The notes under the pieces are model-generated. The model was not told the origin of the DNA, did not search any database, and was given only the letters and a program-made list of their open reading frames with translations. The translations under genes and the position numbers were made by a program. Of a stretch of 64,000 nt of DNA, positions 1 through 16,108 are shown in pieces. This DNA comes from Patescibacteria group bacterium. Its GTDB lineage: Bacteria; Patescibacteriota; Patescibacteriia; Veblenbacterales; UBA10138. The stretch lies in the NCBI GenBank assembly GCA_041645215.1, contig JBAZQK010000001.1:118091-182090 (forward strand), written 5' to 3'. How positions within the stretch are numbered: position 1 is the first letter of the stretch; each line of letters begins with the position of its first letter.

Positions 1-1031
1 ACGCGGTCAAGCTGGAAGTTTTGCGCTCTTTAATGATGGGAACCGATGTTATTATTATTGACCCGGAAATGGAATACAAACATTTGGCCGAAGCGGTCGG
101 CGGGTCGTATGTCAGTATATCGCTTAATTCGGACGCTAAAATTAATCCGTTTGATTTGCCCCGTCCGGTGGGTGATGTGCGGGCCGGCGATATTATCCGT
201 TCGGCGGTTATTACCCTAAAAGGCTTAATGCGTTTAATGTTGGGCGCTTTAACCCATCAGGAAGACTCTATTGTTGACCGGGCTTTGCTGGAAACGTACG
301 CCAAAAAAGACATTACACCAACCTCTGATTTATCCAAAGTTGAGCCGCCGGTGATGGCCGATTTTGAGGACGTATTAAGCGGTATGGCTGGCGCGGAAGA
401 TTTGGTAATACGACTAAAAAAATATACGGACGGCACTTTTGCCGGTTTGTTCAACAAGCCCACCAATATTGATATGCGCAATCAGCTAGTGGTATTTTCG
501 GTGCGTGATTTAGAGGATGAATTACGCCCAATCGCCATTTATTCCATTATTAACTACATTTGGAACATAGTCCGATCGGAACTAAAAAAGAGAATTTTGG
601 TGATAGATGAAGCCTGGTGGCTAATGCAGAATGAGGACAGCGCCAAATTCATTTTTGCCCTGGTCAAGCGTTGCCGCAAATACTACTTAGGCGTTACCAC
701 GATTACGCAGGATGTAAACGACTTTTTAACCTCGCCCTATGGTCAAGCCATTGTTACCAACTCCGCCCTGCAACTATTGCTTAAACAATCACCGTCCGGG
801 ATTGATAAGCTGGTTAATACATTCCTGTTGACCGAAGGCGAAAAGTATTTGTTGTTAGAAGGCGGTGTGGGCGAGGGAATATTTTTTGCCGGCAATAAGC
901 ACGCCGCCATTAAAGTGGTGGCGTCATACACCGAGGACCAGCTAATAACCAGCGACCCGCGGCAATTGCTGGAGATTGAACAGGCTAAAAAAGAGTTTGC
1001 CGCGCAAGTGGACGAGCCGGAAATTGGCTAG
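1..1031 (+). CDS. VirB4/TrbE/CagE-family type IV secretion (conjugative) ATPase, C-terminal portion; 5' end lies outside window
   Basis: ORF open to window edge; motifs RILVIDEAWWLM (DEAW Walker B-like), GVTTITQDVNDF, LLLKQS, FLLTEGEKYLLLEGG typical of VirB4 C-terminal domain. Confidence 0.6.
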   Translation, partial: AVKLEVLRSLMMGTDVIIIDPEMEYKHLAEAVGGSYVSISLNSDAKINPFDLPRPVGDVRAGDIIRSAVITLKGLMRLMLGALTHQEDSIVDRALLETYAKKDITPTSDLSKVEPPVMADFEDVLSGMAGAEDLVIRLKKYTDGTFAGLFNKPTNIDMRNQLVVFSVRDLEDELRPIAIYSIINYIWNIVRSELKKRILVIDEAWWLMQNEDSAKFIFALVKRCRKYYLGVTTITQDVNDFLTSPYGQAIVTNSALQLLLKQSPSGIDKLVNTFLLTEGEKYLLLEGGVGEGIFFAGNKHAAIKVVASYTEDQLITSDPRQLLEIEQAKKEFAAQVDEPEIG

Positions 1032-1035
1032 AAAT

Positions 1036-1399
1036 AGAATTATGAATCAAGAATTAGGAATTAAGAATAATACAGCAAAGATAAAAACATTTACCGACTT
1101 ATTGGCTTGGCAAGAAGGACATAAATTGGTTCTGATGATTTATAAGATAACTACTGATTTTCCTAAGACAGAGCTATTTGCTCTAGTGGATCAATTAGTG
1201 GCTTAATAAAAAAATCAAAAACTATTCGTGATTCTTACCCAGTATAACTACTTGTGTTTCAGCTCGCTTTTAAAATAAAATTTATAAACCAGCTAAGTAA
1301 CTTATTCAATCGTTATCTTTTATTAATTACTTAATCTAAGCTCGCTAAATTTTATTTAACAAAGTAGTTATACTGGGCTTAATTCATAATTCTTAATTC
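1036..1399. repeat. Composite repeat: inverted AGAATTATGAATYAAG/heptamer ends (1036-1068 and 1378-1399) bracketing the four-helix fragment and a CCCAGTATAACTACTTG...CAAGTAGTTATACTGGG inverted-repeat hairpin (1238-1377)
   Basis: Read directly: 17-bp inverted repeat CCCAGTATAACTACTTG / CAAAGTAGTTATACTGGG; heptamers CTTAATTC ATAATTC TTAATTC at 1378-1399 are the reverse complement of 1041-1068. Confidence 0.55.
1042..1206 (+). pseudogene. N-terminal fragment of a four-helix-bundle protein (23S rRNA IVS protein family), truncated after ~55 codons
   Basis: MNQELGIKNNTAKIKTFTDLLAWQEGHKLVLMIYKITTDFPKTELFALVDQLV matches N-terminus of family (cf. intact copies at 2106 and 6746); premature stop; overlaps VirB4-like gene tail. 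Confidence 0.5.
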
Positions 1400-1408
1400 T
1401 TTCTAGTT

Positions 1409-2026
1409 GTGTCTCGTAAATTAATCATCATTCTTAGTGCAACAGCTAGCGTGTTACTGCTCGGTTTAGCAACGGGGTACTTTATTTGGTTTAGGAATCA
1501 ACCGCCGCCGGTTAATGCTAATCAGCCAGCTGACAATAGTCAAAACAATGTTACCGTGAATAATGGCAATGTGGCGCCGGTTAACAACGATGTGCCCTTG
1601 GGTTATCAAGGCTCGGGTGCGGCACCCGGTAGCGAGACCGATGATGATTCGCAAATTAGGTTAGTGGCTAAGAGTTTTGTGGAAAAATACGGCACTTTTT
1701 CAACCGATGTTAATTATGCCAATCTGGAGGGCCTTAAGTATTTATTAACTGACAGTATGAAGGCGGACATTAATAAAAGTGTGGCGGCCGGGCAATCTAA
1801 TCAGACTGGTTCTGTGTCTTTTTATGGCGTTACCACTAAGGCGTTGGTGACAAAAATAATTAATCAGGATTCAGGCCAAGGCGAAGTATTTTTAACCACT
1901 CAGCGCAGTGAAGTTTTTAGTCGTACTGCTACGCCGATTTTGCGGTATCAGGATATTAAAGTTGGTTTGTCAAAAGTCAATGGTCAATGGTTGGTTAACG
2001 AGGTGGAGTGGATTAAAGGGGAATAG
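1409..2026 (+). CDS. Membrane-anchored hypothetical protein (N-terminal TM helix, Pro/Asn-rich linker, globular C-terminal domain); possibly VirB8-like
   Basis: GTG start immediately after heptamer block; TM segment LIIILSATASVLLLGLATGYFIWF; no recognised catalytic motifs. Confidence 0.4.
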   Translation: MSRKLIIILSATASVLLLGLATGYFIWFRNQPPPVNANQPADNSQNNVTVNNGNVAPVNNDVPLGYQGSGAAPGSETDDDSQIRLVAKSFVEKYGTFSTDVNYANLEGLKYLLTDSMKADINKSVAAGQSNQTGSVSFYGVTTKALVTKIINQDSGQGEVFLTTQRSEVFSRTATPILRYQDIKVGLSKVNGQWLVNEVEWIKGE

Positions 2027-2105
2027 GAAACACTTAACCACTTTATCACTGGAACACTTTAACATTTATGGGAAATGATAACTAATTCAAAATTAAAAAA
2101 TCAAA

Positions 2106-2477
2106 ATGGAAAATGACAAATTAAAATTTAAAAATGAATTTAAGAAAAGGCTATATTCTTTTGTACTGAAATTAATTAAATTTATTGATTCTCTGCCTAA
2201 AGGGGTTGTTAGTGAGGTAATGGGTAAGCAATTATTACGCAGTGGCACTAGTATATTAGCCAATTATGTAGAAGCCAACTCAGCTAGTTCTAAGAAAGAT
2301 TTTATTAACTTTTTCACTCATTCTTTAAAATCAGCTAATGAATCAAAAGTTTGGTTAGCACTTTTAAAGGATACTAATAAAGGCAACAAACAAGAATTAG
2401 GCCGCCTTTTGGTGGAACTAATAGAATTGTCTAACATTTTAGCCTCTAGTATTTTAACTCTTAAAAATAAGAAATAA
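2106..2477 (+). CDS. Four-helix-bundle protein (23S rRNA intervening-sequence protein family)
   Basis: Family signature LLRSGTSILANYVEANSASSKKDFINFFTHSLKSANESKVWLALLKD, ~120 aa. Confidence 0.8.
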   Translation: MENDKLKFKNEFKKRLYSFVLKLIKFIDSLPKGVVSEVMGKQLLRSGTSILANYVEANSASSKKDFINFFTHSLKSANESKVWLALLKDTNKGNKQELGRLLVELIELSNILASSILTLKNKK

Positions 2478-2565
2478 TTTTGCATTTTTAATTGTCCCGC
2501 TTTGCGGGATCTCGCAAAGCGATGATAATTTTGATTTTTGATATTTACATTTTACATTTCCCATT

Positions 2566-2961
2566 ATGGCACCCAACGACCAAGCCCAAGATTATGAATC
2601 CGAGTTAGCCGCGGCGAGGCAACAGGAAAGGTTGCAGCAAATGCAAGCGGAGCAAGAGGCGCAAAAACCCAGTCGTTTACAGCGGCTGAAGGGTAATGTT
2701 GCGCAGTTAGCTAAACAGCAGGCGAAAAATATGGCTAAGCAGGCCGCTAAACAAGTTGCCAAGCAAGCTATAAGACCGGTGGCTATTTGGGTGGCAACTG
2801 GAATAGCAGCTCTTTTAGGCAATCCGATTACTTGGTTTGTTTCATTCGCGCTGCTTATCATCGTTTTTGGCTACTGGTGCGTTCAGCCGGCAACTAATAT
2901 CCCTAATTGCGCTGGGATAGTAGGTTGGGGCATTGTTGATATATTTAAGGTTGTTTTTTAG
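2566..2961 (+). CDS. Hypothetical membrane protein, Gln/Ala/Lys-rich coiled N-terminus and C-terminal TM hairpin
   Basis: Low-complexity QQAKNMAKQAAKQVAKQA then TM helices AIWVATGIAALLG / FVSFALLIIVFGYWC. Confidence 0.4.
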   Translation: MAPNDQAQDYESELAAARQQERLQQMQAEQEAQKPSRLQRLKGNVAQLAKQQAKNMAKQAAKQVAKQAIRPVAIWVATGIAALLGNPITWFVSFALLIIVFGYWCVQPATNIPNCAGIVGWGIVDIFKVVF

Positions 2962-3069
2962 TTTAATTTGTATGGATAAGTGTTGTATTTTGGGAAATTG
3001 TGAAATTGTGGTTTGATTAGTATTATTATAACGTGATTTTTTCAAAGGAATGTTAATTTATATATAAAA

Positions 3070-4608
3070 ATGTGCAATCTAGTTAAATTAGTTGTTTTCA
3101 GATCATTTTATGGCGGAATTTTATTAAGTATTATTTCCGTTACGTTTTTGTTATTCCCATTACAGAAGATTGCAGCGGCCGACCCAATTCAAGACAGGTG
3201 TTGGTTGCAAGAAAACTGTGAGTCATATAATGGCATCTGGGGTAAAAGCGATAATTATAAAAAACTTTATGGTAATGGACAGGCTGATGACTGGAGTCAG
3301 AAATTTTGTGATAACATTGGGGCCGATAAAGTTACGGCTCGTTGTTTTGCCGGTAATCCAACCCTGCCGCTGCAAGTCGGCATACCCGGGGTTACGGAAA
3401 AATTTTGTTCCAGTTTTAATTTAGGCAGTGAGCCGACCGCTTGTAAAATTGACGATGATTGTAAAGCCAAAAGTTTAGGTACTTGTCAGCCTGGGATTAA
3501 AGGCGGGTTCCCAGGTTATGTGGCGGCCTTTTATAAGTTTTTCGTGGGTTTTATGGCGGTGGTGGCGGTGGTGATGATTATGTGGGGCGGGTTTAAGCGA
3601 ATAATGGCCGCTGGCAGCGCGGAAAAAATAAAGGACGCTAATGGTACGGTTTTTGCCGCTATTATTGGTTTGGTGTTAACTTTAGTGTCTTATACTTTGC
3701 TTAATTTAATAAATCCACGCTTGGTGGCTAATATTTTGCCGTTAATGGAAAAAGTGCGGCCGGAAATTTTTGGCTTTTGTCCAAGTTATGAAAAAAATAA
3801 GTCCTTGTATGAGGCTGGGTATTTAAAATTTTTATGCGGCAGTGGCAAGAATGTGAATAGAACTTGTTTTACTGATGATGATTGTCCGCCTGACGGTGAG
3901 GTCAAAGGTAAGTGTGTGGAACGGGCTATGAGCTTTAATAACCCAGGGGATAATACTTGTGGTAAAAAGATGGTTTTTAGCGGCCGTGAATGCACCGGTA
4001 TGGAATGTCCTTCTGGACAGGGTTGTTTTAAAAATCAAGCCAGCAATAATCCTCCGTATGCTTGCGACAACATTATGCTCCAGGGAAATCTCAGCGGTAT
4101 ACGGGTTAATAAAATGGATGCCATCTTGGTTTGTAACAACGGCAGCGTGAGTGGTTATAATTGTGGCATGAAAGATGCTAACGGGACGGTTAGTGATAAT
4201 TTAGATGTTAAGAGTAAGAGCAGTTATGTTATTACTGGCTGTTGGACACCGGATACAAACAGCGAGCTTAAGTATCGTACCTTAGACACAAAATATTGTG
4301 AAAATGCCGGCGGTCTTAAGGGTATAGCCTTGGCGATTGAGAGGGAATCTACGGGCTGTGACGATTGGTATATTGTTGATGCTTCGTCTTGTTGGTCAGT
4401 CACCAAGAGAGTTACAGACGGAGACGGCAATTATGTTATATGGCCCCACTCGGCTGCACCTTTTTGTGTATATGATTTGTTTACCGCCGAAATGAATTTT
4501 CAAAAAGTTGATAAGAGCAAATTATTTTACCCTTTTGATAGCGATGGCAAGGTCAAAGCAATAAAATGTGATATAAATGTAACAAATAAAGAATTACCTG
4601 ATTTATAA
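3070..4608 (+). CDS. Large Cys-rich secreted/membrane protein with central pilin-like two-helix hydrophobic core (paralogue of 7863..9158)
   Basis: Signal peptide; >35 Cys; core YKFFVGFMAVVAVVMIMWGGFKRIMAAGSAEKIKDANGTVFAAIIGLVLTLVSYTLLNLINPRLV shared with 7863 ORF. Confidence 0.6.
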   Translation: MCNLVKLVVFRSFYGGILLSIISVTFLLFPLQKIAAADPIQDRCWLQENCESYNGIWGKSDNYKKLYGNGQADDWSQKFCDNIGADKVTARCFAGNPTLPLQVGIPGVTEKFCSSFNLGSEPTACKIDDDCKAKSLGTCQPGIKGGFPGYVAAFYKFFVGFMAVVAVVMIMWGGFKRIMAAGSAEKIKDANGTVFAAIIGLVLTLVSYTLLNLINPRLVANILPLMEKVRPEIFGFCPSYEKNKSLYEAGYLKFLCGSGKNVNRTCFTDDDCPPDGEVKGKCVERAMSFNNPGDNTCGKKMVFSGRECTGMECPSGQGCFKNQASNNPPYACDNIMLQGNLSGIRVNKMDAILVCNNGSVSGYNCGMKDANGTVSDNLDVKSKSSYVITGCWTPDTNSELKYRTLDTKYCENAGGLKGIALAIERESTGCDDWYIVDASSCWSVTKRVTDGDGNYVIWPHSAAPFCVYDLFTAEMNFQKVDKSKLFYPFDSDGKVKAIKCDINVTNKELPDL

Positions 4609-4626
4609 TAATGCACGTGTATCTTC

Positions 4627-4652
4627 AAGCCTCTTATTGCAAGAGGCTTTTG
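4627..4652 (+). terminator. Rho-independent terminator after Cys-rich gene
   Basis: AAGCCTCTTattgcAAGAGGCTT followed by TTTG TT. Confidence 0.6.
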
Positions 4653-4703
4653 TTGTTAAATTGGATTAATTCTTGTATAATATAATAAGGATTAAATGAA
4701 TTT

Positions 4704-4787
4704 ATGTTGGATAATCTTCGTTATTTTTGGAAAAATGTGGATAAAAAAAAGTTTTTAATAGTCTGGATTAATTTGAATTATAAATAG
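4704..4787 (+). pseudogene. Duplicated 5' fragment of the TolB-like gene (27 codons, MLDNLRYFWKNVDKKKF...), diverged copy of 5447..5530
   Basis: ATGTTGGATAATCTTCGTTATTTTTGGAAAAATGTGGATAAAAAAAAGTTTTT vs ATGTTGGATAACCTTCGCTATTGGTGGGAAAATTTGGACAAGAAAAAGTTTTTT at 5447. Confidence 0.55.
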
Positions 4788-4789
4788 AC

Positions 4790-5095
4790 TCGGTGATGTC
4801 ATTTCCGTCCCGTATCAAGTGCGGGATAAATTCCAACGGGAATCTGGGATCCCTTATTTTTGAAGGACTTACAAATATAGATTCCGTATCCACCGCTACG
4901 CGGGGCAGGCAAGTACGGAATGACAAGGATATTTTTTAAATCCGCAAGTCCTGTTAATATTAAAACAGCGCCGTTAAAGTTATTGGAGGTGTTTTTTGTT
5001 GCGTGGGTTGTCATCCTGAGCGCGAGCGAAGGAGCTCATAGATTCCTCAGCCCTCCTAAGGAGGGCTGAGGAATGACACTACTTAGTACTTTCAG
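4790..5095. repeat. Palindrome-rich noncoding segment (GTCATTCC...GGAATGAC type hairpins; perfect 15-bp stem ATTCCTCAGCCCTCC-taa-GGAGGGCTGAGGAAT; degenerate MITE-like copy with AGGACTTAC...GCAAGTCCT ends at ~4862-4978)
   Basis: Inverted repeats read directly from sequence; no credible ORF (track ORF 4799..5014 rejected). Confidence 0.5.
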
Positions 5096-5113
5096 AGTTG
5101 GCTAAATTAGGCT

Positions 5114-5142
5114 TTGTCAAAAAGCTTAAATTATGCTATAAT
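5114..5142 (+). promoter_or_regulatory. Sigma70-like promoter TTGTCA-N17-TATAAT; -10 ends 6 nt before ATG 5149 (leaderless transcript predicted)
   Basis: TTGTCA 5114-5119, TATAAT 5137-5142. Confidence 0.5.
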
Positions 5143-5148
5143 TTATTT

Positions 5149-5391
5149 ATGCAATCACTATTAATTAAGTTTTCGCCGGCTTTATTTTGGGATATTGATA
5201 GAGATTCTTTAAATTTTAAAAAACACCGTCAGTTTGTGATTGAGCGAGTGTTGAAATTCGGCGACTCCTCAGACTGGCAGGCCATAAAACAATTTTATGG
5301 TTTACCAGCCATAAAAAAAGTGGCTCAAACCAGCCGTGATTTAGATGATAAAAGTCGTAATTTTTGGCGGATTATGTTAAAAATTAAGTAA
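5149..5391 (+). CDS. Small conserved hypothetical protein (FWDID...FVIERVL..G..DW domain, commonly found as C-terminal module of HTH proteins)
   Basis: MQSLLIKFSPALFWDIDRDSLNFKKHRQFVIERVLKFGDSSDWQAIKQFYG...; start chosen at Met18 of track ORF because promoter occupies 5114-5142. Confidence 0.45.
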   Translation: MQSLLIKFSPALFWDIDRDSLNFKKHRQFVIERVLKFGDSSDWQAIKQFYGLPAIKKVAQTSRDLDDKSRNFWRIMLKIK

Positions 5392-5446
5392 AAATTAATG
5401 ACTGTTTTAACGCCGCCGGGAATTAAATTTTTACGGCTAGAAATAT

Positions 5447-6718
5447 ATGTTGGATAACCTTCGCTATTGGTGGGAAAATTTGGACAAGAAAAAGTTTTTT
5501 GGAGCCGTTACGGTTTTAACAGTTATTATCGGTCTGGGTTTTGTTATTTATTTAATTTGGCGTCCGGAAAGGCCGTCATCGCCAACCAATGTGAATTTGC
5601 CCGGAGAGAGCGGTTTCCCAATAGGCGCTCCCGGCGGGGTAAATGTGGCTGAACCGGGTGAAATCACTTTACCGTCAACCGAAGGAGTAACTCCGCCGCC
5701 GAGCGGCGGCGAGTTGCCGCCGGTAATCGCCAGCGGCGGCATTACTCTGACCGCGGTGGTAAATGACCAAGCAACCGCTTTCCCCGTATTTAGCGGCAGC
5801 GCCGTGCGTTATTATGACCCGCGTGAATGTGGTTTTTACGAAATAACCGGCGACGGCCAGCGCGCCGCCTTGACTGATGCTGCTTATTGCAGTGTTAATA
5901 ATATGACTTGGTCGCCAAATACCACGGGCGCGGTTTTGGAGTTTCCCGATGGTTCCAATGTGGTTTATGATTTTAGAACTAAGAAGCAATATTCTTTGCC
6001 TCGGGAAATGGAAAATTTTTCCTGGTCGCCGGATAGCGGTAAAATTGCCGGCAAGTTTATGGGTGACGATTTGGGAGACAGATGGGTGGTTACGGTTAAC
6101 AGCGACGGCTCGGCTTTAACCGGGGTGGAGCCAATGGGCGATAACGCCGACAAGGTCAATGTGGAATGGTCGCCGAATAATCAGGTAATTGCTCTGTCGC
6201 GAACCGGTGAACCGTCCGGCGCTTTTACCCAGCAGGTGTTATTGGTTGGATTTAATCAGGAAAATTTTAAAGGTTTGTATATTGATGGCCGTGGTTTTCA
6301 GCCTAAATGGACGCCGGATGGTAAAAGATTGTTATATTCGGTATTCAATGATAAAACCAATTTTAAACCGTCACTTTGGCTGGCTGATGCGGCTCCCGAT
6401 AGAGTTGGCTTAAATAAACAAAATCTTAACTTAGCCACTTGGGCTGATAAGTGCAATTTTAGCGGGAGCTATGCTTATTGCGCCGTACCAACCAATTTGC
6501 CGGACGGGTCTGGTTTAGTGCGGGAATTGGCTAATGGCGCACCGGATTCGTTGTGGCGGGTGGATTTAACCACGGGCGCGATTAATATTTTAGCTACTCC
6601 GGTCGCCGATGACGGTCAAGGTCTGACCGCGGCCAATATAACAATTTCAGCTGATGCCAAATGGCTGTATTTTACCGACAGCGACGGTAAGCTAAGGAGT
6701 GTGAAGTTGCAGGAGTAA
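5447..6718 (+). CDS. TolB-like beta-propeller (PD40 repeat) protein, N-terminally membrane anchored, Pro/Gly-rich linker
   Basis: Repeated WSPD/WSPN/WTPDGK motifs (FSWSPDSGKIAG, VEWSPNNQVIAL, PKWTPDGKRLLY); TM helix near N-terminus. Confidence 0.55.
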   Translation: MLDNLRYWWENLDKKKFFGAVTVLTVIIGLGFVIYLIWRPERPSSPTNVNLPGESGFPIGAPGGVNVAEPGEITLPSTEGVTPPPSGGELPPVIASGGITLTAVVNDQATAFPVFSGSAVRYYDPRECGFYEITGDGQRAALTDAAYCSVNNMTWSPNTTGAVLEFPDGSNVVYDFRTKKQYSLPREMENFSWSPDSGKIAGKFMGDDLGDRWVVTVNSDGSALTGVEPMGDNADKVNVEWSPNNQVIALSRTGEPSGAFTQQVLLVGFNQENFKGLYIDGRGFQPKWTPDGKRLLYSVFNDKTNFKPSLWLADAAPDRVGLNKQNLNLATWADKCNFSGSYAYCAVPTNLPDGSGLVRELANGAPDSLWRVDLTTGAINILATPVADDGQGLTAANITISADAKWLYFTDSDGKLRSVKLQE

Positions 6719-6745
6719 CAAAAAATATCAAAATTCAAATTTCAA

Positions 6746-7126
6746 ATGTCAAACCAAGCACGAAATCCCAATGACAAAAAGTATGATTTAAAGGAAAGAA
6801 CGTCTAAATTCGGCGAAGACTTGATAATTTTTGTTTCAAAATTAGAGCGAAGCCCCATAAACAATCCCTTAGTTAGTCAATTGGTCAGGTCTTGTACAAG
6901 CATAGGAGCAAATTATATGGAGGCTGATGGTGCGGAATCAAGGCCGGATTTTAAACATAAGATTGCTATTTGCAAAAAAGAGGCCAAAGAAACCACGCAT
7001 TGGTGTAAAATGTTAGCCGCAGTTAATCCGCAGTACGGAGAGCATTTTGCTGGTTTTTATAAAGAAGCGCATGAGTTGGTTTTAATTTTTTCTTCCATTT
7101 TGAATAATATGGTTAAGTCAAAATAA
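6746..7126 (+). CDS. Four-helix-bundle protein (23S rRNA IVS protein family), second intact copy
   Basis: LVRSCTSIGANYMEADGAESRPDFKHKIAICKKEAKETTHWCKMLAAV, ~125 aa. Confidence 0.8.
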   Translation: MSNQARNPNDKKYDLKERTSKFGEDLIIFVSKLERSPINNPLVSQLVRSCTSIGANYMEADGAESRPDFKHKIAICKKEAKETTHWCKMLAAVNPQYGEHFAGFYKEAHELVLIFSSILNNMVKSK

Positions 7127-7169
7127 TTTTAGTCATTTAGAAATTGATTTGTCATTTGAGCTTTGAAAT

Positions 7170-7826
7170 TTGGATTTTATGAATAAGCATGGTTTCTGGT
7201 TTTTACTAATTGCTTTAGGAGTTGTTGGTTTTGCGTTTTATAGTTTAAAGCAGCAATCTTCAAGCTTTAAGCCGGCGCTTAAACCGGTTAATATTATTTA
7301 TCCCAAGTTACCCGGTGAAGTGACAATTTTTCCGGCTGACCCCCAGCTCGGCGAACGACAGGCACCGGTAAAAATTATTGAATTCGGTGATTTTCAATGT
7401 CCATTCTGCGCGCAAACCGCGCCGATTTTAGAACAGACGGTTAAAAACAATAAAGGCAAAGTTGAGCTTATTTGGAAGGATTTTCCGCTCCCTGATCACC
7501 CCGAGGCCTATGCCGCCGCCGCCGCCGCGCAATGCGCCGGTCGGCAAGGAAAATTTTGGGAATATCACGACCAATTATTTTTGAATCAAAGTTCTTTGGG
7601 TCAAGATTTGTATAACAGGATAGCTTCGTCTTTAAATTTAAATATGGAGAAATTTTCCAGTTGCCTAAGTAATCACGAAGCTGTACCGTTAATAAAGCAG
7701 AATATTGACGAGGCTCGAGCCATTGGGGTTGATAGCACGCCGTATTTTGTGATAAACGGGCAAGTTTATAGCGGTATAATAAGCCAGGAAGAGTTAAATT
7801 CCCTTATTAATTCAGTTAGTAAATAA
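7170..7826 (+). CDS. DsbA-family thiol:disulfide oxidoreductase, membrane anchored
   Basis: N-terminal TM helix, thioredoxin-fold active site FGDFQCPFCAQ (CxxC). Confidence 0.75.
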   Translation: MDFMNKHGFWFLLIALGVVGFAFYSLKQQSSSFKPALKPVNIIYPKLPGEVTIFPADPQLGERQAPVKIIEFGDFQCPFCAQTAPILEQTVKNNKGKVELIWKDFPLPDHPEAYAAAAAAQCAGRQGKFWEYHDQLFLNQSSLGQDLYNRIASSLNLNMEKFSSCLSNHEAVPLIKQNIDEARAIGVDSTPYFVINGQVYSGIISQEELNSLINSVSK

Positions 7827-7862
7827 AAATCATTTATACTATCAGTTGGGCAGTAATTATTT

Positions 7863-9158
7863 ATGAAGCTATCAAATATTAGTAAGATATTAATTCTATA
7901 TATCACGGTATTTTCTTTTTTGGTTTCATATAATTATGTTTTGGCGCAAACTGATTTAGAACAGTGTAAGAGCGCTGGTTATACTGGAATAGGTGATTGT
8001 AAACAAAATGAACAAGGTGATGGTATGTGGTGCGAATCAACTATTAATACAGCGGAAAAACTAAAGCCAATTATTACATGTGAAGGTTGTCCTACTTATA
8101 AATTATGTTGTCAAAAACCAGAAGATCCTAATAATGCAGCACCATTAGCTCCTAGAGTACCGGGGTGTATAGAAAAGATACCTGACGCCCAAACAACCCC
8201 ACCTGAACCCATATATTTCAAGCCCAGCGTTACCATACCCGGCACAATTTTTACAGCCGGCAAAGAGATTGAGATAACCGGCGAATCTTTTGCTCAATAT
8301 GTCAGCGGCTTTTATAAATTCTTTGTCGGTTTTATGGTGGTGGTTACGGTGGTGATGATAATGTGGGGCGGGTTTAAGCGAATTATGGCCGCCGGTTCAG
8401 CTGAAAAAACTAAAGACGCTAATGATACAATTTTTGCCGCCATTATTGGTTTGGTTATTACTTTAATTTCTTATACTTTGCTTAATTTAATAAATCCGCA
8501 GTTAGTTAATTTAAAAACCTTAGCAATACAATCAATTAAAGCGGAAGAATTTAGCATACGTCCGGGTATATTGGAAAATCCTGGTCTTAAAAGTACTGCT
8601 GATGAATATAAAATAATGTCATGTCCCTCAAGTGCGGAATTACTGGCTGGAGTTAAATTTTTTACAACAGGTTATTATAAGCCCAACTTTGAAGATAAAG
8701 AGCGGTACCAAAGTTTTTGGTGTAATATTGCCATGCAGTGTTCTTGCCCAAATGGTAGGGAAGTTGAATATTCGTGTCAGTCAGGGACCATGAAGTGGCA
8801 ACCCTGCAAAAAGTTTAATAATGATGTACCTTACTGCAATGCAGCAGCAGAAATGCGCACGCCACCACCGCCACCAGGACAGACAACACCCACTAAGACA
8901 CCGGAACCTTGGGTTACAGTAGCACAGAAAGGATGCAATATGACCGGAACGGTATTGAAGGTGTTTGGTTCTAAGCAGGATGGGGTAAATACTGCCGTGT
9001 GGTATGTGCATGATACAGGGGGCGCTATCACCGGGCGGCGGATTGATCTATATTTCGGTCAAGGTCCAAGTGCCTATCAGCAAGCCGTGAAAAGTACGGG
9101 TATTGTCACAGTAAAGAAGTGCCCAGATAACGATATAAGTAAGTGTCCATCTTTATAA
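7863..9158 (+). CDS. Cys-rich secreted/membrane protein with pilin-like two-helix core and C-terminal 3D (MltA/YuiC-like) domain; paralogue of 3070..4608
   Basis: Signal peptide; core YKFFVGFMVVVTVVMIMWGGFKRIMAAGSAEKTKDANDTIFAAIIGLVITLISYTLLNLINPQLV; C-terminus VHDTGGAITGRRIDLYFG matches 3D-domain motif. Confidence 0.6.
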   Translation: MKLSNISKILILYITVFSFLVSYNYVLAQTDLEQCKSAGYTGIGDCKQNEQGDGMWCESTINTAEKLKPIITCEGCPTYKLCCQKPEDPNNAAPLAPRVPGCIEKIPDAQTTPPEPIYFKPSVTIPGTIFTAGKEIEITGESFAQYVSGFYKFFVGFMVVVTVVMIMWGGFKRIMAAGSAEKTKDANDTIFAAIIGLVITLISYTLLNLINPQLVNLKTLAIQSIKAEEFSIRPGILENPGLKSTADEYKIMSCPSSAELLAGVKFFTTGYYKPNFEDKERYQSFWCNIAMQCSCPNGREVEYSCQSGTMKWQPCKKFNNDVPYCNAAAEMRTPPPPPGQTTPTKTPEPWVTVAQKGCNMTGTVLKVFGSKQDGVNTAVWYVHDTGGAITGRRIDLYFGQGPSAYQQAVKSTGIVTVKKCPDNDISKCPSL

Positions 9159-9165
9159 ACATAAA

Positions 9166-10518
9166 ATGAGTGCGCATTCAGCTGTTGTTTATTTCTGCTC
9201 CAACTGCGACGCCCAATACCCCAAATGGGTGGGGCGTTGTACGGAATGCGGGCAGTTTGGCACAGTATCAACCACGCCGCGGGTTATTAGTAAAGTATCC
9301 AAGACTACTGCCTTTTCTACCGTTGCCAGTACTGTTCTGCTGGGCAATACAGCTGATGTACAGTTAGTCAAGCGTTTTAGTTCCGGCTTGATGGAGGTTG
9401 ATAGGGTTTTAGGCGGTGGTTTGGCTAAAGCCAGTGTGGTTTTGCTTAGCGGCGAACCGGGGGTTGGTAAATCAACCTTGGTTTTAGTTTTGGCGGAAAA
9501 ATGCGGCGCTGATGTTCTATATGCTTCGGGCGAAGAATCAGTTGAGCAAGTACAAGGCCGAATAAAGCGTTTAGGTTTAACAGCTGGCCGGCTTCATTTT
9601 ACCACTGCCACTGATATTCGTGCCGTAGTTGAATCAGCCAAGCAACTTAAACCAGCTTTATTGGTAGTTGATTCATTGCAGACTATGCAACTGGAAGATA
9701 TTGACGGCGCGGCTGGTTCACCCACTCAAACCCGCGGCGTTTTAAGTGAGCTAATTGCCCTGGCCAAGAATTTAGGCATGATAGTTTTAGTCATTGGTCA
9801 TGTTACTAAGGAGGGGGTGGCGGCTGGACCCAAAGCCATTGAGCATTTAGTGGATATTGTTTTGACTTTGGATGGAGCCGAACATCAAGCTTTGCGATTT
9901 TTGCGCGCCAGTAAGAATCGGTTTGGCCCGACTGATGAAGTTGGCGTGTTTCAGATGGCGGAAAATGGATTAATTGAAGTTAGTAATCCATCCGCCCTGT
10001 TTTTAGCCGAACGTCACAGCGGGCCCGGCTCTTGCGTCGCCGCCTTATTAGAAGGTTCGCGCAGTTTGTTAATAGAAGTCCAAGCTTTGGTTACCAGAAC
10101 CAGCAACATAAAATATCCCAAGCGCGCGACCACCGGGTTTGACCTGAATCGCTTGCAGATGTTATTGGCGGTCTTGGGCGAACGAACGCCAATAAAACTT
10201 GATTTTAAAGATGTTTATGTTAATTTAGCCGGTGGTTTTAAAAGTCGCGAGCCGTCGCTTGATTTGGCGGTTTGCTTAGCCGTAACTTCCGCCGCGCTTA
10301 AAAAAACCTTACCGCGCGATTTGGTTGTTTGGGGCGAGGTTGGCTTAGGCGGTGAGGTCAGGCCGGTGGTGGCAATGGAACGCCGCTTGGCCGAAGCCGG
10401 CCGATTAGGGTTTAAACAGGCGCTAACGCCAAAATTGCCAGCCAACGCCAAGTTGCCCAAAGACATAGAGCTAGTATTAATAAGAAATTTAACAGAAGCG
10501 GTGGAGTGGGTGAGATAG
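9166..10518 (+). CDS. radA: DNA repair protein RadA/Sms
   Basis: N-terminal Zn ribbon CSNCDAQYPKWVGRCTECGQ, Walker A GEPGVGKST, Lon-like C-terminal domain, 450 aa. Confidence 0.9.
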   Translation: MSAHSAVVYFCSNCDAQYPKWVGRCTECGQFGTVSTTPRVISKVSKTTAFSTVASTVLLGNTADVQLVKRFSSGLMEVDRVLGGGLAKASVVLLSGEPGVGKSTLVLVLAEKCGADVLYASGEESVEQVQGRIKRLGLTAGRLHFTTATDIRAVVESAKQLKPALLVVDSLQTMQLEDIDGAAGSPTQTRGVLSELIALAKNLGMIVLVIGHVTKEGVAAGPKAIEHLVDIVLTLDGAEHQALRFLRASKNRFGPTDEVGVFQMAENGLIEVSNPSALFLAERHSGPGSCVAALLEGSRSLLIEVQALVTRTSNIKYPKRATTGFDLNRLQMLLAVLGERTPIKLDFKDVYVNLAGGFKSREPSLDLAVCLAVTSAALKKTLPRDLVVWGEVGLGGEVRPVVAMERRLAEAGRLGFKQALTPKLPANAKLPKDIELVLIRNLTEAVEWVR

Positions 10519-10667
10519 CAGTTGGCGTATAGCGTAGAGCAAATAGCAGATGGTGTGGGTAGTAAATATACCATGGGTCAAAATTGTCCGGTCACCGCAC
10601 CTACTATTAAAAAAATTTTAATTTTGCCCTCTGCCGTTATGGCGGCATCGGACATTTTTGACATATA

Positions 10668-10798
10668 TAGGACTTACGCGTTTGTCATCCTGAACTTGGT
10701 TCAGGATCTCGGCACCGTTAAGAAAGGCTGAGATTCTGAAATAAATTCAGAATGACGGAATGAAAAAGCCTTATTTAGTATCAAACGCGTGAGTCCTA
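10668..10798. repeat. MITE-like element, copy 1: termini TAGGACTTACGCGTTTG ... CAAACGCGTGAGTCCTA, internal nested hairpins (ATCCTGAAC-ttg-GTTCAGGAT; ATTCTGAA-ataa-ATTCAGAAT)
   Basis: 17-bp terminal inverted repeat with 1 mismatch read directly; homologous termini at 44970, 55620, 56679. Confidence 0.6.
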
Positions 10799-10903
10799 TT
10801 ATAGATAAATTTGGTAGATTTGATTAAAATAAGTAGTTTGGTAGGTAAAATTGGGTCAGTTAAAAGGAGAAAACCAAGCCTTACGGGGCCTGGTTTTGGT
10901 AGA

Positions 10904-11161
10904 TTATTTGAAATTGATCACTTTTTTAAATTTTTTGTGATCGAAACCTTCTCGCTTGCATACTTGTACAAACAAATTTTTGTTTGTTACAGTAATTTTT
11001 ACATTTTTTTGTTGTACAAGTTCAAGAGTTCTTTTAATTTTACCGACTACTGCTCCTTGTGTTGACAGGTTAGAAGTGTTGATTGAGATTATATGAGGAC
11101 TACTTCCGCCGTTTGGATAAGTAGCAAGTGGTGTCCAGTTTTGTCCATTTGACTTTGCCAT
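10904..11161 (-). CDS. Hypothetical protein (weak call)
   Basis: 85-aa ORF in an otherwise gene-free 600-bp interval; no recognised motifs. Confidence 0.2.
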   Translation of the reverse strand: MAKSNGQNWTPLATYPNGGSSPHIISINTSNLSTQGAVVGKIKRTLELVQQKNVKITVTNKNLFVQVCKREGFDHKKFKKVINFK

Positions 11162-11426
11162 TTTTACTCCGAATAGTAGAGAATTGTTATTTTTGTTTTT
11201 TTTAGCTGTTTTAATCTGAACTCCCCCGCAGATTTAAAATTGAGTAAACAATGGTTTTAGCTGGTGTTAAGTTTCATTCTTCCTCCGACATTTGTTTTTA
11301 TTAACTTTGGATAGAGCGCTCGAGCACGAATTGATGGAGGATTCACCACCGACACGTGTTAACTCTATCCAAGTTGTTATTTTTTGGTAAATTACTTTAT
11401 ACCACGGATGTTTTATTTTGTCAATA

Positions 11427-13487
11427 TTATTCAGGATGAAAATCAATATTTTTTAATTGCTGTTTGATTTGCGGCCATTTGGTAAAATTAGGGTCAGTTT
11501 GAATTGTATATTGAGCCGCGTTTCTAACAGTTACTAAAAGTTCGGCGTTTACTAAATCAGCGTACTTAAGATTAAAATAGCCCGATTGGATATCACCAAG
11601 TAAACTACCCGGTCCGCGTTCGGCCAGGTCATATTCAGCCAGGGCAAAGCCGTTTTGGTATTTAACCATAGCTTGTAAGCGTGATGGTAAATTATTTTTT
11701 TGGTCCGTAAACAATAAACAATAACTTTGTCGGCTTGAACGCCCGACTCGGCCGCGCAGTTGATGCAGTTGGGCAATGCCAAAATGCTCCGCCCCTTCAA
11801 TCGCCATTATGGTGGCCTCCGGTACATCTACCCCAACTTCAACCACCGTGGTTGTTACCAGTATTGGAGTAGTGCCATTTTTAAAATTGTTCATCGCTTC
11901 AGTTTTTTGCTGACTGGACATTTTGCCATGCAACCGGCCAATTTTTATAGATTTAAACACCTCTTGGGCTAACCGGTCAGCTTCAGTCGTGACGGATTTT
12001 TGACCGCCTTCGTCGTCGTCTTCAATTAACGGGCAAATTATAAAAACTCGGTTTTGTTCAGCTATTTCTTGTTTAATTAATTGATAGGCCGCGGTTCTTT
12101 GATTTGGTTCTACGATTTTAGTAGTTATGGGCAGGCGGCCGCTCGGCATTGATTTGATTAAGGAAATATCCAAATCACCGTAGATTGACAGAGCTAACGA
12201 ACGGGGAATAGGCGTGGCCGATAATGATAAAAGATGAGGGTATAGAGCTTGTGGCTGGTTCATTAAATAGCGCCTTTGCTCCACGCCAAAACGGTGTTGC
12301 TCGTCGATTATGACAAATCCCAGCCGAGCCCATTGTATAGTTTTTTGCAATAAACTGTGCGTGCCGACAATAATGTTTATTTTATCTTCAGCCAACAATT
12401 TTTTTATGCTGGCACTGGTAGTTTTTTTATTGTCGTTTGGTCGGTTTAGTAAATGATAGCCGCGTGATAATAAAGCCAACGATATGGGGTAATCTTTAAA
12501 TAAATCAGCCAGGGTATGAAAATGCTGTTTGGCCAGAATTTCCGTGGGCGCTACCAAGGCCACTTGCCAGCCGGCTTTAACGGCGTTTAAGGCCGCAATG
12601 CCCGCCACGATGGTTTTACCAGATCCAACATCACCTTGTAATAACCTAAACATTGGCTTGGCTTGTCCCAGGTCTTTAATAATTTTCCAGGCGGCCTGTT
12701 TTTGGTCAACTGTTAACTGCCAAGGCAGGCCGGCCACAAAATTTTTAGTGTCAGGCGAGTAGTCAATAACCGGTGACTTAAGCTGTCGCAATGATTGGCG
12801 GGCCAACTTGGCCTGCAAGTTGATTAAGTATAGTTCATCAAAAGCCAAGCGGCGACGAGCCTGTAGGATGTCGTTGTGGTTTTTAGGAAAGTGTAATTGA
12901 ATTATAGTTTGGTTTAAATTTATTATTTTAGCTTGGTTTTTTATGGCGGCGGGCAACCAATCATTTATTCCTTTGGCTAAAGGTAATACTTTATTAATTT
13001 GTGTTCTTAACCAGTGGTTGTTTAACAAGCCGTGTAATGAATAATAGGGCACCAGCCGGCCAGTATGTACGCCATAGGTTTTGCTTGGTTCGTAGGTTGG
13101 TTGTTCCAGTTGCAAGCCGTAGTTAGACAGTGATAGTTTGCCCGACAGGAGAATTATATCGCCGGCTTTTAAATTTTTTATCAGATAAGGCTGATTAAAC
13201 CAAATAGCTTTAATACTGCCGGTATCGTCGCTTATTACGGCCTGGGTAATGGTTAAACGGCTTTTAAACGAGCGGCGAGCGCTTATTAGGTTAACGCGGC
13301 CTTTAATGGTAACTTTATCGCCGGCGGTTAGTTGTTTAATAGGAGTGATTTGTGAATAATCCTCATATCTAATGGGTAAGTGCCACAGTAAATCATTGAC
13401 TGTAAAAATTTCCAAGGTAGCCAGTTTTTTGGCCATGGCCGGGCCAATGCCGCTGATATTGGTTATTGGGTTTAATAGCGAAAGCAT
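11427..13487 (-). CDS. recG: ATP-dependent DNA helicase RecG
   Basis: Wedge-domain N-terminus, helicase motifs GDVGSGKT, DEQHRFGV, 686 aa. Confidence 0.9.
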   Translation of the reverse strand: MLSLLNPITNISGIGPAMAKKLATLEIFTVNDLLWHLPIRYEDYSQITPIKQLTAGDKVTIKGRVNLISARRSFKSRLTITQAVISDDTGSIKAIWFNQPYLIKNLKAGDIILLSGKLSLSNYGLQLEQPTYEPSKTYGVHTGRLVPYYSLHGLLNNHWLRTQINKVLPLAKGINDWLPAAIKNQAKIINLNQTIIQLHFPKNHNDILQARRRLAFDELYLINLQAKLARQSLRQLKSPVIDYSPDTKNFVAGLPWQLTVDQKQAAWKIIKDLGQAKPMFRLLQGDVGSGKTIVAGIAALNAVKAGWQVALVAPTEILAKQHFHTLADLFKDYPISLALLSRGYHLLNRPNDNKKTTSASIKKLLAEDKINIIVGTHSLLQKTIQWARLGFVIIDEQHRFGVEQRRYLMNQPQALYPHLLSLSATPIPRSLALSIYGDLDISLIKSMPSGRLPITTKIVEPNQRTAAYQLIKQEIAEQNRVFIICPLIEDDDEGGQKSVTTEADRLAQEVFKSIKIGRLHGKMSSQQKTEAMNNFKNGTTPILVTTTVVEVGVDVPEATIMAIEGAEHFGIAQLHQLRGRVGRSSRQSYCLLFTDQKNNLPSRLQAMVKYQNGFALAEYDLAERGPGSLLGDIQSGYFNLKYADLVNAELLVTVRNAAQYTIQTDPNFTKWPQIKQQLKNIDFHPE

Positions 13488-14598: not shown

Positions 14599-15240
14599 TT
14601 GGATTTTGAGCAATATTTGTCATCTGGTAATTTAACCGGTTATTGTGTTAAGATAACAACCATGATTGATAAAAAATTTTTTAACCAACTAAAAAAGCGT
14701 TACCAAACCTCCGGCCAGGGTCGCCGGCAGCTTTCGGAAATGTCTAATCAGGCCCAATCTTTGAGCAAACAAGCCATTTTTGCCAGCCAACGAGGTGATT
14801 TAAATCAGGCGGCTGCTTTATTGAAACAGGCTGAGCAACAGCTGTTTAATGGGCAAAAATTAGTGCGTCAAATTGAAGATTTGGAAAACCAAGGCAGTTA
14901 TCGGGCGGCCTGGGAAGAATTTGCCGAGGCTAAATTATTTTATAATTATTTAACCACTGGTAATCTGGGCGCGATTATAAAGACCGAGTTACCCGTGGAG
15001 GTATATATTGGCGCGGTTAGTGATTTAGTGGGCGAGATGGTGCGTTATGCCGTTAAGCTGGCTACTGATGGCCAGGGCGTTAAGGTTGGCGCGGTAGTAA
15101 AAGTGGCCACCATCATCACGGCTATTTTAGGCGAGATGAATCTAACTGGCGGCTTGCGCAGTAAGTATGACCAGGCCAGGCATCATTTGCGCCGTTTGGA
15201 AGATATTCAATATGACTTGGCCATTAAACACCGCGCCTAG
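14599..15240 (+). CDS. Hypothetical helical protein
   Basis: 213-aa ORF (start may be Met at 14665); no confident family assignment. Confidence 0.35.
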   Translation: MDFEQYLSSGNLTGYCVKITTMIDKKFFNQLKKRYQTSGQGRRQLSEMSNQAQSLSKQAIFASQRGDLNQAAALLKQAEQQLFNGQKLVRQIEDLENQGSYRAAWEEFAEAKLFYNYLTTGNLGAIIKTELPVEVYIGAVSDLVGEMVRYAVKLATDGQGVKVGAVVKVATIITAILGEMNLTGGLRSKYDQARHHLRRLEDIQYDLAIKHRA

Positions 15241-15889: not shown

Positions 15890-16108
15890 ATGTCAATTAG
15901 GAGCGTTTGTCCTTGTGGGTGCATATGCCACGTAACCGGGCATTGTGGAGTTGTTGGACCATGTTGTTACTACGCAGGAAAACTGTGGGAGAATGGCAGA
16001 TTTGTAACCAGTGATATTAGTAGTCCTGTAATGAGGCGTGCACTGAAGTATACTAAAAAGATTTTGTCAAAAAAGCCGCCAAAGAAAAAATCAAAGAATA
16101 AAAAATAG
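15890..16108 (+). CDS. Small Cys-rich basic-tailed protein (72 aa)
   Basis: CPCGCICHVTGHCGVVGPCCYY then KKKSKNKK tail; SD-like AAGGTGAG upstream; hairpin GTGCCAttaacaTGTGGCAC downstream. Confidence 0.4.
   Translation: MSIRSVCPCGCICHVTGHCGVVGPCCYYAGKLWENGRFVTSDISSPVMRRALKYTKKILSKKPPKKKSKNKK

Follow-up and report, generated by a model that had tools for sequence, protein, structure and literature searches.

We analysed 64,000 nucleotides of a Patescibacteria genome (assembly GCA_041645215.1, contig JBAZQK010000001.1, positions 118,091–182,090; hereafter the window), focusing on its first 9,158 nucleotides, where ten co-directional genes, all on the forward strand, belong to a type IV secretion system (T4SS) locus (Table 1). 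Besides a VirB4-like ATPase, the locus encodes small membrane proteins, two large cysteine-rich proteins built around a pilin-like helical hairpin, a DsbA-type oxidoreductase and a PD40-repeat protein. An original prediction, made from the DNA letters alone, had listed these items, and open reading frames together with family scans recovered every one of them in place.

The T4SS assignment in that prediction was borne out by VirB4 and its upstream neighbours. The window opens within virB4; an ENA contig of 45 kb (L001), identified by exact look-up with the 205-amino acid (aa) protein of the locus, carries identical sequence and adds 3.3 kb upstream of the window. The full-length ATPase encoded there (624 aa) passes the curated cut-off of the CD1110-family model NF045971 (354 versus 325 bits) and aligns to model positions 182–730, upholding the VirB4 call. 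It had also been suggested that further T4SS genes be sought upstream, and the same contig carries PrgI/VirB3 (PF12666; 31.3 bits for the L005 orthologue, cut-off 27) and a TraC-like/TrsD-like gene (PF26593). VirB4 is split on this contig, with the TrsD-like gene at 1268–1960, the ATPase gene at 2470–4344 and a four-helix-bundle cassette between the two. The TrsD/TraC-like protein, 230 aa long, corresponds in alignments to the N-terminal region of VirB4 models; against NF041427 TrsD it scores 26.6 bits, below cut-off.

Related loci were collected with a VirB4 scan of one genome per species, which gave at least 410 candidate stretches confirmed by tblastn; 80 loci were fetched, with VirB4 71–88% identical. 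Most are recorded as Patescibacteria, the named candidate phyla being mostly Kerfeld-, Falkow-, Magasanik-, Uhr- or Komeilibacteria, and these names point to class ABY1 (Kerfeldbacteria and allies) as home to the closest relatives. TrsD-like and PrgI genes adjoin virB4 in nearly all 80 loci. Dozens of Patescibacteria genomes share the gene order, and the synteny comparison proposed at the outset yielded a recurrent series: PrgI, TrsD-like protein, VirB4, 205-aa protein, small membrane protein, pilin-like protein 1, PD40-repeat protein, DsbA, pilin-like protein 2, radA. Among the 46 loci that extend 8 kb or more beyond virB4 on its downstream side, the gene for the 205-aa VirB8-like protein is present in 45, a pilin-like gene in 33 (two or more in 17), the PD40-repeat protein in 28, radA in 27 and DsbA in 23. 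The PD40-repeat gene adjoins a pilin-like gene in 24 loci and DsbA in 21, and radA directly follows a pilin-like gene in 16. In several loci the block of pilin, PD40-repeat, DsbA and radA genes lies 6–8 kb away and inverted, still intact. DsbA and the PD40-repeat (presumed propeller) protein are conserved, syntenic components of the locus. In loci with a displaced pilin block, the gene next after the VirB8-like one is comF, for a ComF-type phosphoribosyltransferase with the motif VDDVxTTGAT (L020 7899–8549, L024 7883–8626, L049 12346–13089).

Upstream of PrgI, relatives encode a protein of 993–1324 aa with six to eight membrane helices in the first ~340 residues and then a ~650-aa hydrophilic part, an extended VirB6-like layout by architecture. 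Preceding it in relatives is a protein of more than 900 aa that runs off the locus end (L005 3–2756, L035 3–3245, L008 3–3542); the parts seen in L005 and L035 hold several cysteines, the L005 part has no Pfam or NCBIfam match, and the protein may be a further surface component of the T4SS.

Among the proteins of the 64-kb window we found no relaxase, coupling protein or integrase, and the remaining 55 kb encode housekeeping or unrelated functions (RecG, SHMT, RNase J, UvrA, UvrC, UvrD, GroES/EL, PPDK, RuvB, PolA). Given such flanks, and none of those three mobility functions, the locus is the downstream half of a vertically inherited chromosomal Patescibacteria T4SS and not a mobile element. 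The top VirB4 models do come from conjugative elements (CD1110 family, Mycoplasma integrative conjugative element), as they would if the locus belonged to such an element itself. Against this stand the missing mobility genes, the housekeeping flanks, the gene order shared across the 80 fetched relatives, the VirB4 identity of 71–88% in them, and the rarity of VirB4 transfer between Patescibacteria classes (PMC12102498). We rejected this explanation as hardly credible.

The two large proteins align with each other only over residues ~146–219 and ~141–214 (BLASTP E 1e-27). Within these cores they are 85% identical at the nucleotide level over 64 codons, against 20–38% in the in-register flanks, so the claim of two Cys-rich proteins with only a two-helix hydrophobic module in common held. 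In an AlphaFold2 model of the 512-aa protein (predicted local distance difference test (pLDDT) score 85.2), long helices at 146–179 and 184–214 form a hairpin between a ~100-aa N-terminal domain and a ~290-aa beta-rich C-terminal domain; its hydrophobic segments span 157–175 and 193–211 and contain no cysteine. At 431 and 512 aa, with ectodomains of ~100 and 200–300 aa, neither protein has the small-pilin format.

Family membership of the hairpin is clearest among its homologues. The window proteins score just below the gathering cut-off of PF18895 (T4SS_pilin; 24.8 and 26.2 bits, cut-off 26.6), at E 2e-5 and 9e-6, and at E ≤ 0.001 the model recognizes 41 of 43 protein 1 orthologues and 19 of 21 protein 2 orthologues (60/64; best 4e-12). 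The best named match for the hairpin is NF045849, the Mbov_0395 pilin-like model from the Mycoplasma element, at 30–34 bits in the window against a cut-off of 40; it matches 32 of the 43 protein 1 orthologues. NCBI names the 512-aa protein ‘pilin’ and the 431-aa protein ‘3D domain-containing protein’. Neither window protein matches PF04956 (TrbC/VirB2), and hhalign comparisons of the core profile with Agrobacterium tumefaciens VirB2 (the query being 99% identical to annotated virB2 genes) and with a seven-member TrbC/VirB2 alignment returned probabilities of ~1%. No pilin emerged when PDB sequences were searched with the hairpin profile, and fold searches, which cannot separate a two-helix hairpin from other helical hairpins, returned only generic ones. 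Two relatives, P0103 and P0106, match the window core (E 4e-32 and 2e-26) and also pass PF04956 (33 and 51 bits, cut-off 27.9), so that, judged by sequence, homology to canonical VirB2 is transitive only. The proposed resemblance to VirB2/TrbC pilins therefore stands as PF18895 family membership, clearest in the homologues, and falls as a direct profile comparison with VirB2/TrbC of the MPF-T (mating-pair formation) type. On present profile evidence, the hairpin proteins are members of the T4SS_pilin family, pilin-like in topology, and not demonstrable VirB2 orthologues or pilus subunits.

When 1.84 billion representatives were searched with phmmer, 10,644 proteins proved to contain the core (E ≤ 0.001). 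Most of the top 150 are 200–890 aa long, and some have two to eight tandem hairpins. Six to eight T4SS_pilin domains in tandem, or two hairpins together with an SLT domain, occur in single polypeptides such as P0106 (820 aa), P0115 (552 aa), P0133 (555 aa), P0104 and P0103, and fused ‘pilin arrays’ of this kind do not fit easily with classical pilus subunits. Since the nearest core relatives are mostly large multi-domain proteins, a PF18895 match should not always be read as evidence of a pilus.

These data bear on whether the hairpin proteins, or fragments of them processed at IPG/NPxLV motifs, are true pilins of a pilus decorated with Cys-rich heads and hydrolases. Known VirB2 proteins measure about 70–120 aa, and chains of 431–512 aa lie far above any of them; by our estimate, globular domains of ~100 and ~300 aa attached without long linkers would crowd an F- or T-type lattice; and relatives that carry six to eight hairpins per chain cannot be subunits of the classical kind. 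In favour of true pilins are the membership of a family named for T4SS pilins, the transitive link to TrbC/VirB2, a VirB2/TraA-like topology with ends outside and loop inside, and the invariant ‘IPG’ and ‘NPxL’ motifs on either side of the hairpin. The window, moreover, encodes no small stand-alone pilin, and pilin arrays are essential in Southlakia (PMC10633639). We consider true pilins distinctly unlikely.

Within a genome the two hairpins are unusually alike. For 14 of the 20 within-genome pairs, no more than one foreign core among the 68 examined is nearer to either member than its own paralogue, with similarities of, for example, 0.88 within the genome versus 0.57 for the best foreign core, or 0.99 versus 0.51, and the heads of the paired proteins are unrelated despite the matched hairpins. 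In the window cores, 35 of 51 synonymous codon positions are identical, compared with 22.8 expected from codon usage. These patterns point to concerted evolution of the two hairpins within a genome, through gene conversion, co-adaptation or both, and we read the likeness as a hint that the two may assemble together.

The heads carry even numbers of cysteines in every domain: eight N-terminal and 18 C-terminal in protein 1, eight and ten in protein 2. The hairpins are Cys-free, the sole exception outside the ectodomains being one signal-peptide cysteine. A signal peptide followed by two membrane helices predicts that both large domains of each protein face outward. Protein 1 heads retain invariant cysteines and the motifs CW..C..G.W, TARCF and LQVGIPG among orthologues, and their ectodomains have no fold match in the PDB. 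The notion of interchangeable heads consequently applies to the hydrolase end of protein 2, which varies, and does not extend to the conserved heads of protein 1.

At the protein 2 position before radA, a recognizable C-terminal hydrolase domain occurs in 16 of 21 genomes: SLT in eight, VanY/M15 in six, M23 in one and 3D in one, the window itself. More 3D–pilin and VanY–pilin fusions were found in the protein database. The 3D domain in the window reaches 32.5 bits, above the cut-off of 23.8. Of solved structures, the lytic transglycosylase YuiC is the nearest to it, and the window stretch DTGGAITGRRIDLYF aligns with DTGSAIKGNRLDLYF of YuiC. Window protein 2 lacks the SLT fold of canonical VirB1, which eight of the 21 orthologues have. 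Because 3D occupies the site that SLT, VanY or M23 holds in related genomes, describing the domain as functionally VirB1-like was well founded. That hydrolase families have replaced one another repeatedly, while the anchor and its place in the T4SS locus stayed the same, is strong comparative evidence that wall cutting, the VirB1 role, is the putative selected function of the protein 2 C terminus, and protein 2 is likely to be the VirB1 equivalent.

The intervening DsbA has a membrane helix at 8–26 and a CPFC motif at aa 77–80. It had been named as the logical partner for the many disulfides, and the cysteine layout, with even numbers in predicted outward domains, fits an adjacent membrane-anchored DsbA that would oxidize the heads. 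The PD40-repeat protein has a membrane helix at 19–37, a Pro/Gly-rich linker and four cysteines. Calling it TolB-like was an overstatement, as generic PD40 repeats alone were detected. TolB itself was tried and rejected: TIGR02800 scored 21 bits against a cut-off of 343, Tol-Pal genes are absent, and the literature treats Patescibacteria as monoderms (PMC12857230).

DsbA, the PD40-repeat protein and radA might instead be housekeeping genes in conserved order with no functional tie to the T4SS. About half of the loci lack DsbA and two have a second copy nearby, a terminator-like site and an insertion lie between the units, and small genomes retain gene order through inheritance. Such an origin sits poorly, however, with a block of pilin-like protein 1, PD40-repeat protein, DsbA and pilin-like protein 2 that moves as a unit, displaced by 6–8 kb and inverted, and with pilin-like proteins that hold 18–27 cysteines, all outside. 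We regard it as improbable.

Of the smaller membrane proteins, the 205-aa protein had been put forward as possibly VirB8-like. A single-sequence homologue search gave three matches and was repeated with an alignment; an AlphaFold2 model built on a 35-sequence alignment (pLDDT 82.8) shows a membrane helix at 3–29, a disordered linker at 39–71 and a three-helix/four-strand domain at 78–202. By predicted fold, a single-pass anchor with an NTF2-like domain in a T4SS locus, this protein is VirB8-like. VirB8, PrgL and TcpC models run against 73 family members returned no VirB8 match (0/73) and one weak TcpC match (E 0.003), and a PDB sequence search with the 73-member profile hit the membrane-helix region only (DotF, E 0.03); since that search and the Pfam scan gave no VirB8 match, the assignment is one of fold. 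The 131-aa protein has a charged N-terminal half, a hydrophobic segment at ~83–101 and then cysteines 105 and 115, both kept in close relatives. In most loci with a pilin-like gene downstream, the protein at this position has a charged N terminus and one to three C-terminal membrane helices.

We propose, with a probability of about 0.62, that the locus encodes the envelope-spanning part of an ABY1 T4SS equipped with wall-hydrolase and head modules; each step of the following mechanism is less certain than the whole. The hairpin proteins would be exported by Sec and stay in the membrane, the short loop between the helices facing inward and the two large domains outward, and the locus DsbA would oxidize their 8 + 18 and 8 + 10 cysteines. 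The hairpins would then co-assemble with each other and with a VirB3/4/6/8 membrane complex, which would explain why they are kept alike in each genome. Protein 2 would carry its 3D/MltA-type peptidoglycan hydrolase to the assembly site, opening the wall as VirB1, PrgK, TraG and CwlT do; protein 1 would show its conserved disulfide-rich head at the distal, cell-surface end; and the membrane-anchored PD40-repeat protein could be a lineage-specific scaffold.

Several observations weigh against this picture. Thirteen of the 46 loci lack any pilin-like gene within 10 kb, and both window hairpin proteins fall just below the PF18895 cut-off, with a null profile comparison to MPF-T VirB2 and no solved pilin matched by sequence or fold. 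The VirB6-like protein is known from relatives alone and by architecture, searches with hidden Markov models giving no match. DsbA, absent from so many loci, may serve the whole secretome, and no DsbB or VKOR redox partner was found among the window proteins. Finally, the terminator-like site and the DUF6922 insertion divide the locus into at least two transcription units.

As for the transported substrate, DNA import is our leading guess because of the radA/recG/comF neighbourhood. The T4SS could be a DNA-uptake system like Helicobacter ComB, with RadA, RecG and ComF processing incoming DNA, a role compatible with the architecture that we favour. Consistent with uptake, radA lies 8 nucleotides downstream of protein 2, co-directional with it and adjoined by recG, and is present in 27 of the 46 loci; loci with a displaced pilin block have comF behind the VirB8-like gene; relaxase and coupling-protein genes are absent from the 64 kb; and the same suggestion has been made before (PMC12102498, PMC11665869). 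Gene neighbourhood is nevertheless weak evidence when taken alone, and a passage in a review (PMC12857230, citing Wang 2023) relates that deleting comEC in Southlakia abolishes competence and leaves cells viable, whereas the T4SS is essential, which, on that account, implies a role beyond transformation at least in Saccharibacteria. We hold DNA uptake to be possible, if on balance unlikely.

A bolder extension of the proposed assembly makes the VirB2-type hairpin a modular docking element that would plug heads, whether disulfide-knotted or drawn from at least four hydrolase families, into the ABY1 T4SS. Gene conversion would keep the hairpins matched for co-assembly, and relatives with six to eight hairpins would be pre-assembled forms. 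This is speculative and rather unlikely to be right; if true, the hydrolase could target the host wall, and the apparatus would be a disulfide-hardened organ for breaching the host.

Features of the locus are collected in Table 1. Four of them were absent from the original prediction: the three four-helix-bundle cassettes (~1036–1393, 2106–2477 and 6746–7126), the DUF6922 insertion (4757–5441), the terminator-like hairpin and radA. The terminator-like hairpin behind protein 1, together with a 743-nucleotide insertion, suggests two transcription units, one from virB4 to protein 1 and the other from the PD40-repeat gene to radA, which is probably its last gene; recG lies beyond radA on the opposite strand. 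An Rfam scan of window positions 1–12000 gave zero matches.

Table 1. Genes and features at the T4SS locus, in window coordinates.
Feature	Positions	Strand	Evidence
VirB4-like ATPase, C-terminal 342 aa; gene start upstream of window	3–1031	+	NCBIfam NF045971 CD1110 family, E 1e-59; Pfam P-loop_TraG
Truncated four-helix-bundle (23S_rRNA_IVP) gene	~1043–1206	+	Weak match
VirB8-like 205-aa membrane-anchored protein	1409–2026	+	Predicted fold; no match in family scans
Four-helix-bundle gene	2106–2477	+	TIGR02436, PF05635
131-aa small single-pass membrane protein	2566–2961	+	No match in family scans
Pilin-like protein 1, 512 aa, 27 Cys	3070–4608	+	PF18895 24.8 bits (cut-off 26.6); NF045849 30.2 bits
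Two-helix hairpin core of protein 1, aa 146–219	3505–3726	+	AlphaFold2 helices, hydrophobic segments
Terminator-like hairpin and T-rich tail, 19 nt past protein 1 stop	4627–4649	+	Consensus scan, 9-pair stem; pattern match only
DUF6922 protein	5098–5391	+	PF21956
Membrane-anchored PD40-repeat protein, presumed propeller	5447–6718	+	PD40 26.8 bits
Four-helix-bundle gene	6746–7126	+	TIGR02436, PF05635
Membrane-anchored DsbA-type thiol-disulfide oxidoreductase	7170–7826	+	Thioredoxin_4 111 bits; DSBA 67 bits
Pilin-like protein 2, 431 aa, 18 Cys	7863–9158	+	PF18895 26.2 bits; 3D 32.5 bits (cut-off 23.8)
Two-helix hairpin core of protein 2, aa 141–214	8283–8504	+	BLASTP and nucleotide comparison with protein 1 core
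Segment matched by Pfam 3D model, aa 377–408, motif DTGGAITGRRIDLYF	8991–9086	+	Pfam 3D
radA, 8 nt downstream of protein 2, co-directional	9166–10518	+	Pfam matches on L001

Six four-helix-bundle (23S_rRNA_IVP/TIGR02436) cassettes, one of them truncated, are scattered among the T4SS genes in 13 kb (window 1036–1393, 2084–2551 and 6730–7178; L001 3–314, 846–1217 and 2006–2392). The three in the window all fall within its first 7.2 kb, with none in the other 57 kb, and each lies within inverted repeats whose ends pair in predicted folds (1030–1402: z −5.8). Across the fetched loci, 14 (L001 among them) hold the 25 copies found; every copy points the same way as the T4SS genes, and the intergenic site varies. 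Co-orientation, varying sites and inverted repeats suggest that these genes are mobile cassettes inserting into the T4SS operon. The DUF6922 unit looks like another insertion, with a duplicated target: a 58-nucleotide direct repeat, 84% identical (4699–4756 and 5442–5499), duplicates the start of the PD40-repeat gene around an insertion at 4757–5441. The 743-nucleotide repeat unit holds a perfect 16-bp palindrome (5042–5074), a strong promoter-like site (5114–5142) and the DUF6922 gene, which occupies the same position in L002, L006 and L011; Rfam gave no match.

Elsewhere in the window, a Translin-family protein is encoded near recG (14599–15240; Pfam 57 bits), an unusual bacterial copy of a family that is mainly eukaryotic and archaeal, and a 72-aa candidate open reading frame at 15890–16108 (MSIRSVCPCGCICHVTGHCGVVGPCCYY) has seven cysteines. 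Over 1–64000, nearly all 2-kb bins have positive GC skew and the cumulative value climbs steadily to 3.55, placing the window on one replichore with origin and terminus outside.

The claim that this is not a described system did not survive comparison with the literature. In Southlakia epibionticum, the sole Patescibacterium with genetics, a T4SS with a predicted pilin array proved essential (Wang et al. 2023, PMC10633639). A Patescibacteria survey described a distinct VirB4 clade near MPF-FATA with abundant TrsD and PrgI, PF18895 and PF04956 pilins near virB4, and radA, recG and comF near ABY1 loci (Quinonero-Coronel et al. 2025, PMC12102498). In the same survey VirB8 was rare, its matches nearly all in ABY1, VirB1 homologues were few, and most Patescibacteria with VirB2-like pilins had no VirB1. 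A 2025 review repeats this picture (PMC12857230), and another calls the role of the Patescibacteria T4SS ‘completely unknown’ (PMC11665869). Together with the existing NCBI name for the 512-aa protein, these accounts establish the system as such. In the open-access literature searched we found no mention of pilin–hydrolase fusions, the DsbA, the propeller protein or the Cys-rich heads. What looks new is a hairpin protein that swaps hydrolases, the syntenic DsbA and propeller protein, the concerted hairpins and the even numbers of outward cysteines. Our results suggest that VirB8 and VirB1 functions are present in ABY1 loci yet hidden, one recognizable only by fold and the other fused to a hairpin. 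The locus also supplies clonable muralytic candidates, a fuller parts list (DsbA, PD40-repeat protein, single-pass protein) and testable co-assembly of hairpins.

The locus resembles published Patescibacteria T4SSs (PMC10633639, PMC12102498) in its MPF-FATA-related VirB4, TrsD-like protein, PrgI/VirB3 and PF18895 pilins by virB4; it is likewise chromosomal, with no relaxase or coupling protein nearby and with radA and recG as neighbours, as in ABY1. Unlike in those accounts, both pilin-family proteins here are 431–512 aa long and one bears a wall hydrolase. Relative to the survey (PMC12102498), our locus adds a DsbA, a PD40-repeat protein and Cys-rich pilin heads, and its VirB8 is recognized by fold, in 45 of 46 loci. 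Among individual families, VirB2/TrbC/TraA pilins share with the window proteins a signal peptide, two hydrophobic helices and a short loop, but show no direct sequence or profile similarity and are four to five times smaller. The Mbov_0395 family of the Mycoplasma element has a similar hairpin, and the VirB4 of that element (Mbov_0397 family) is also a strong match to window VirB4; its model NF045849, however, covers 80 positions, the hairpin alone, to which the window proteins add two large ectodomains.

Among complete systems, Helicobacter pylori ComB is, like our locus, a T4SS with neither relaxase nor coupling protein; it keeps a VirB2-like component (ComB2), and our locus adds recombination and competence genes as neighbours. 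ComB, which has been given as a precedent (PMC11665869), belongs to a diderm and includes VirB7, VirB9 and VirB10; the comparison covers the shared T4SS core. Gram-positive conjugative T4SSs (pCF10 Prg, pIP501 Tra, ICEBs1 Con and C. difficile CTn) differ from the window locus, which has neither relaxase nor coupling protein. In their hydrolases PrgK, TraG and CwlT, a simple N-terminal helix serves as membrane anchor and SLT is paired with CHAP or LytM. Protein 2 of the window is instead held by a pilin-family hairpin that lies between a Cys-rich domain and a hydrolase whose family differs from genome to genome.

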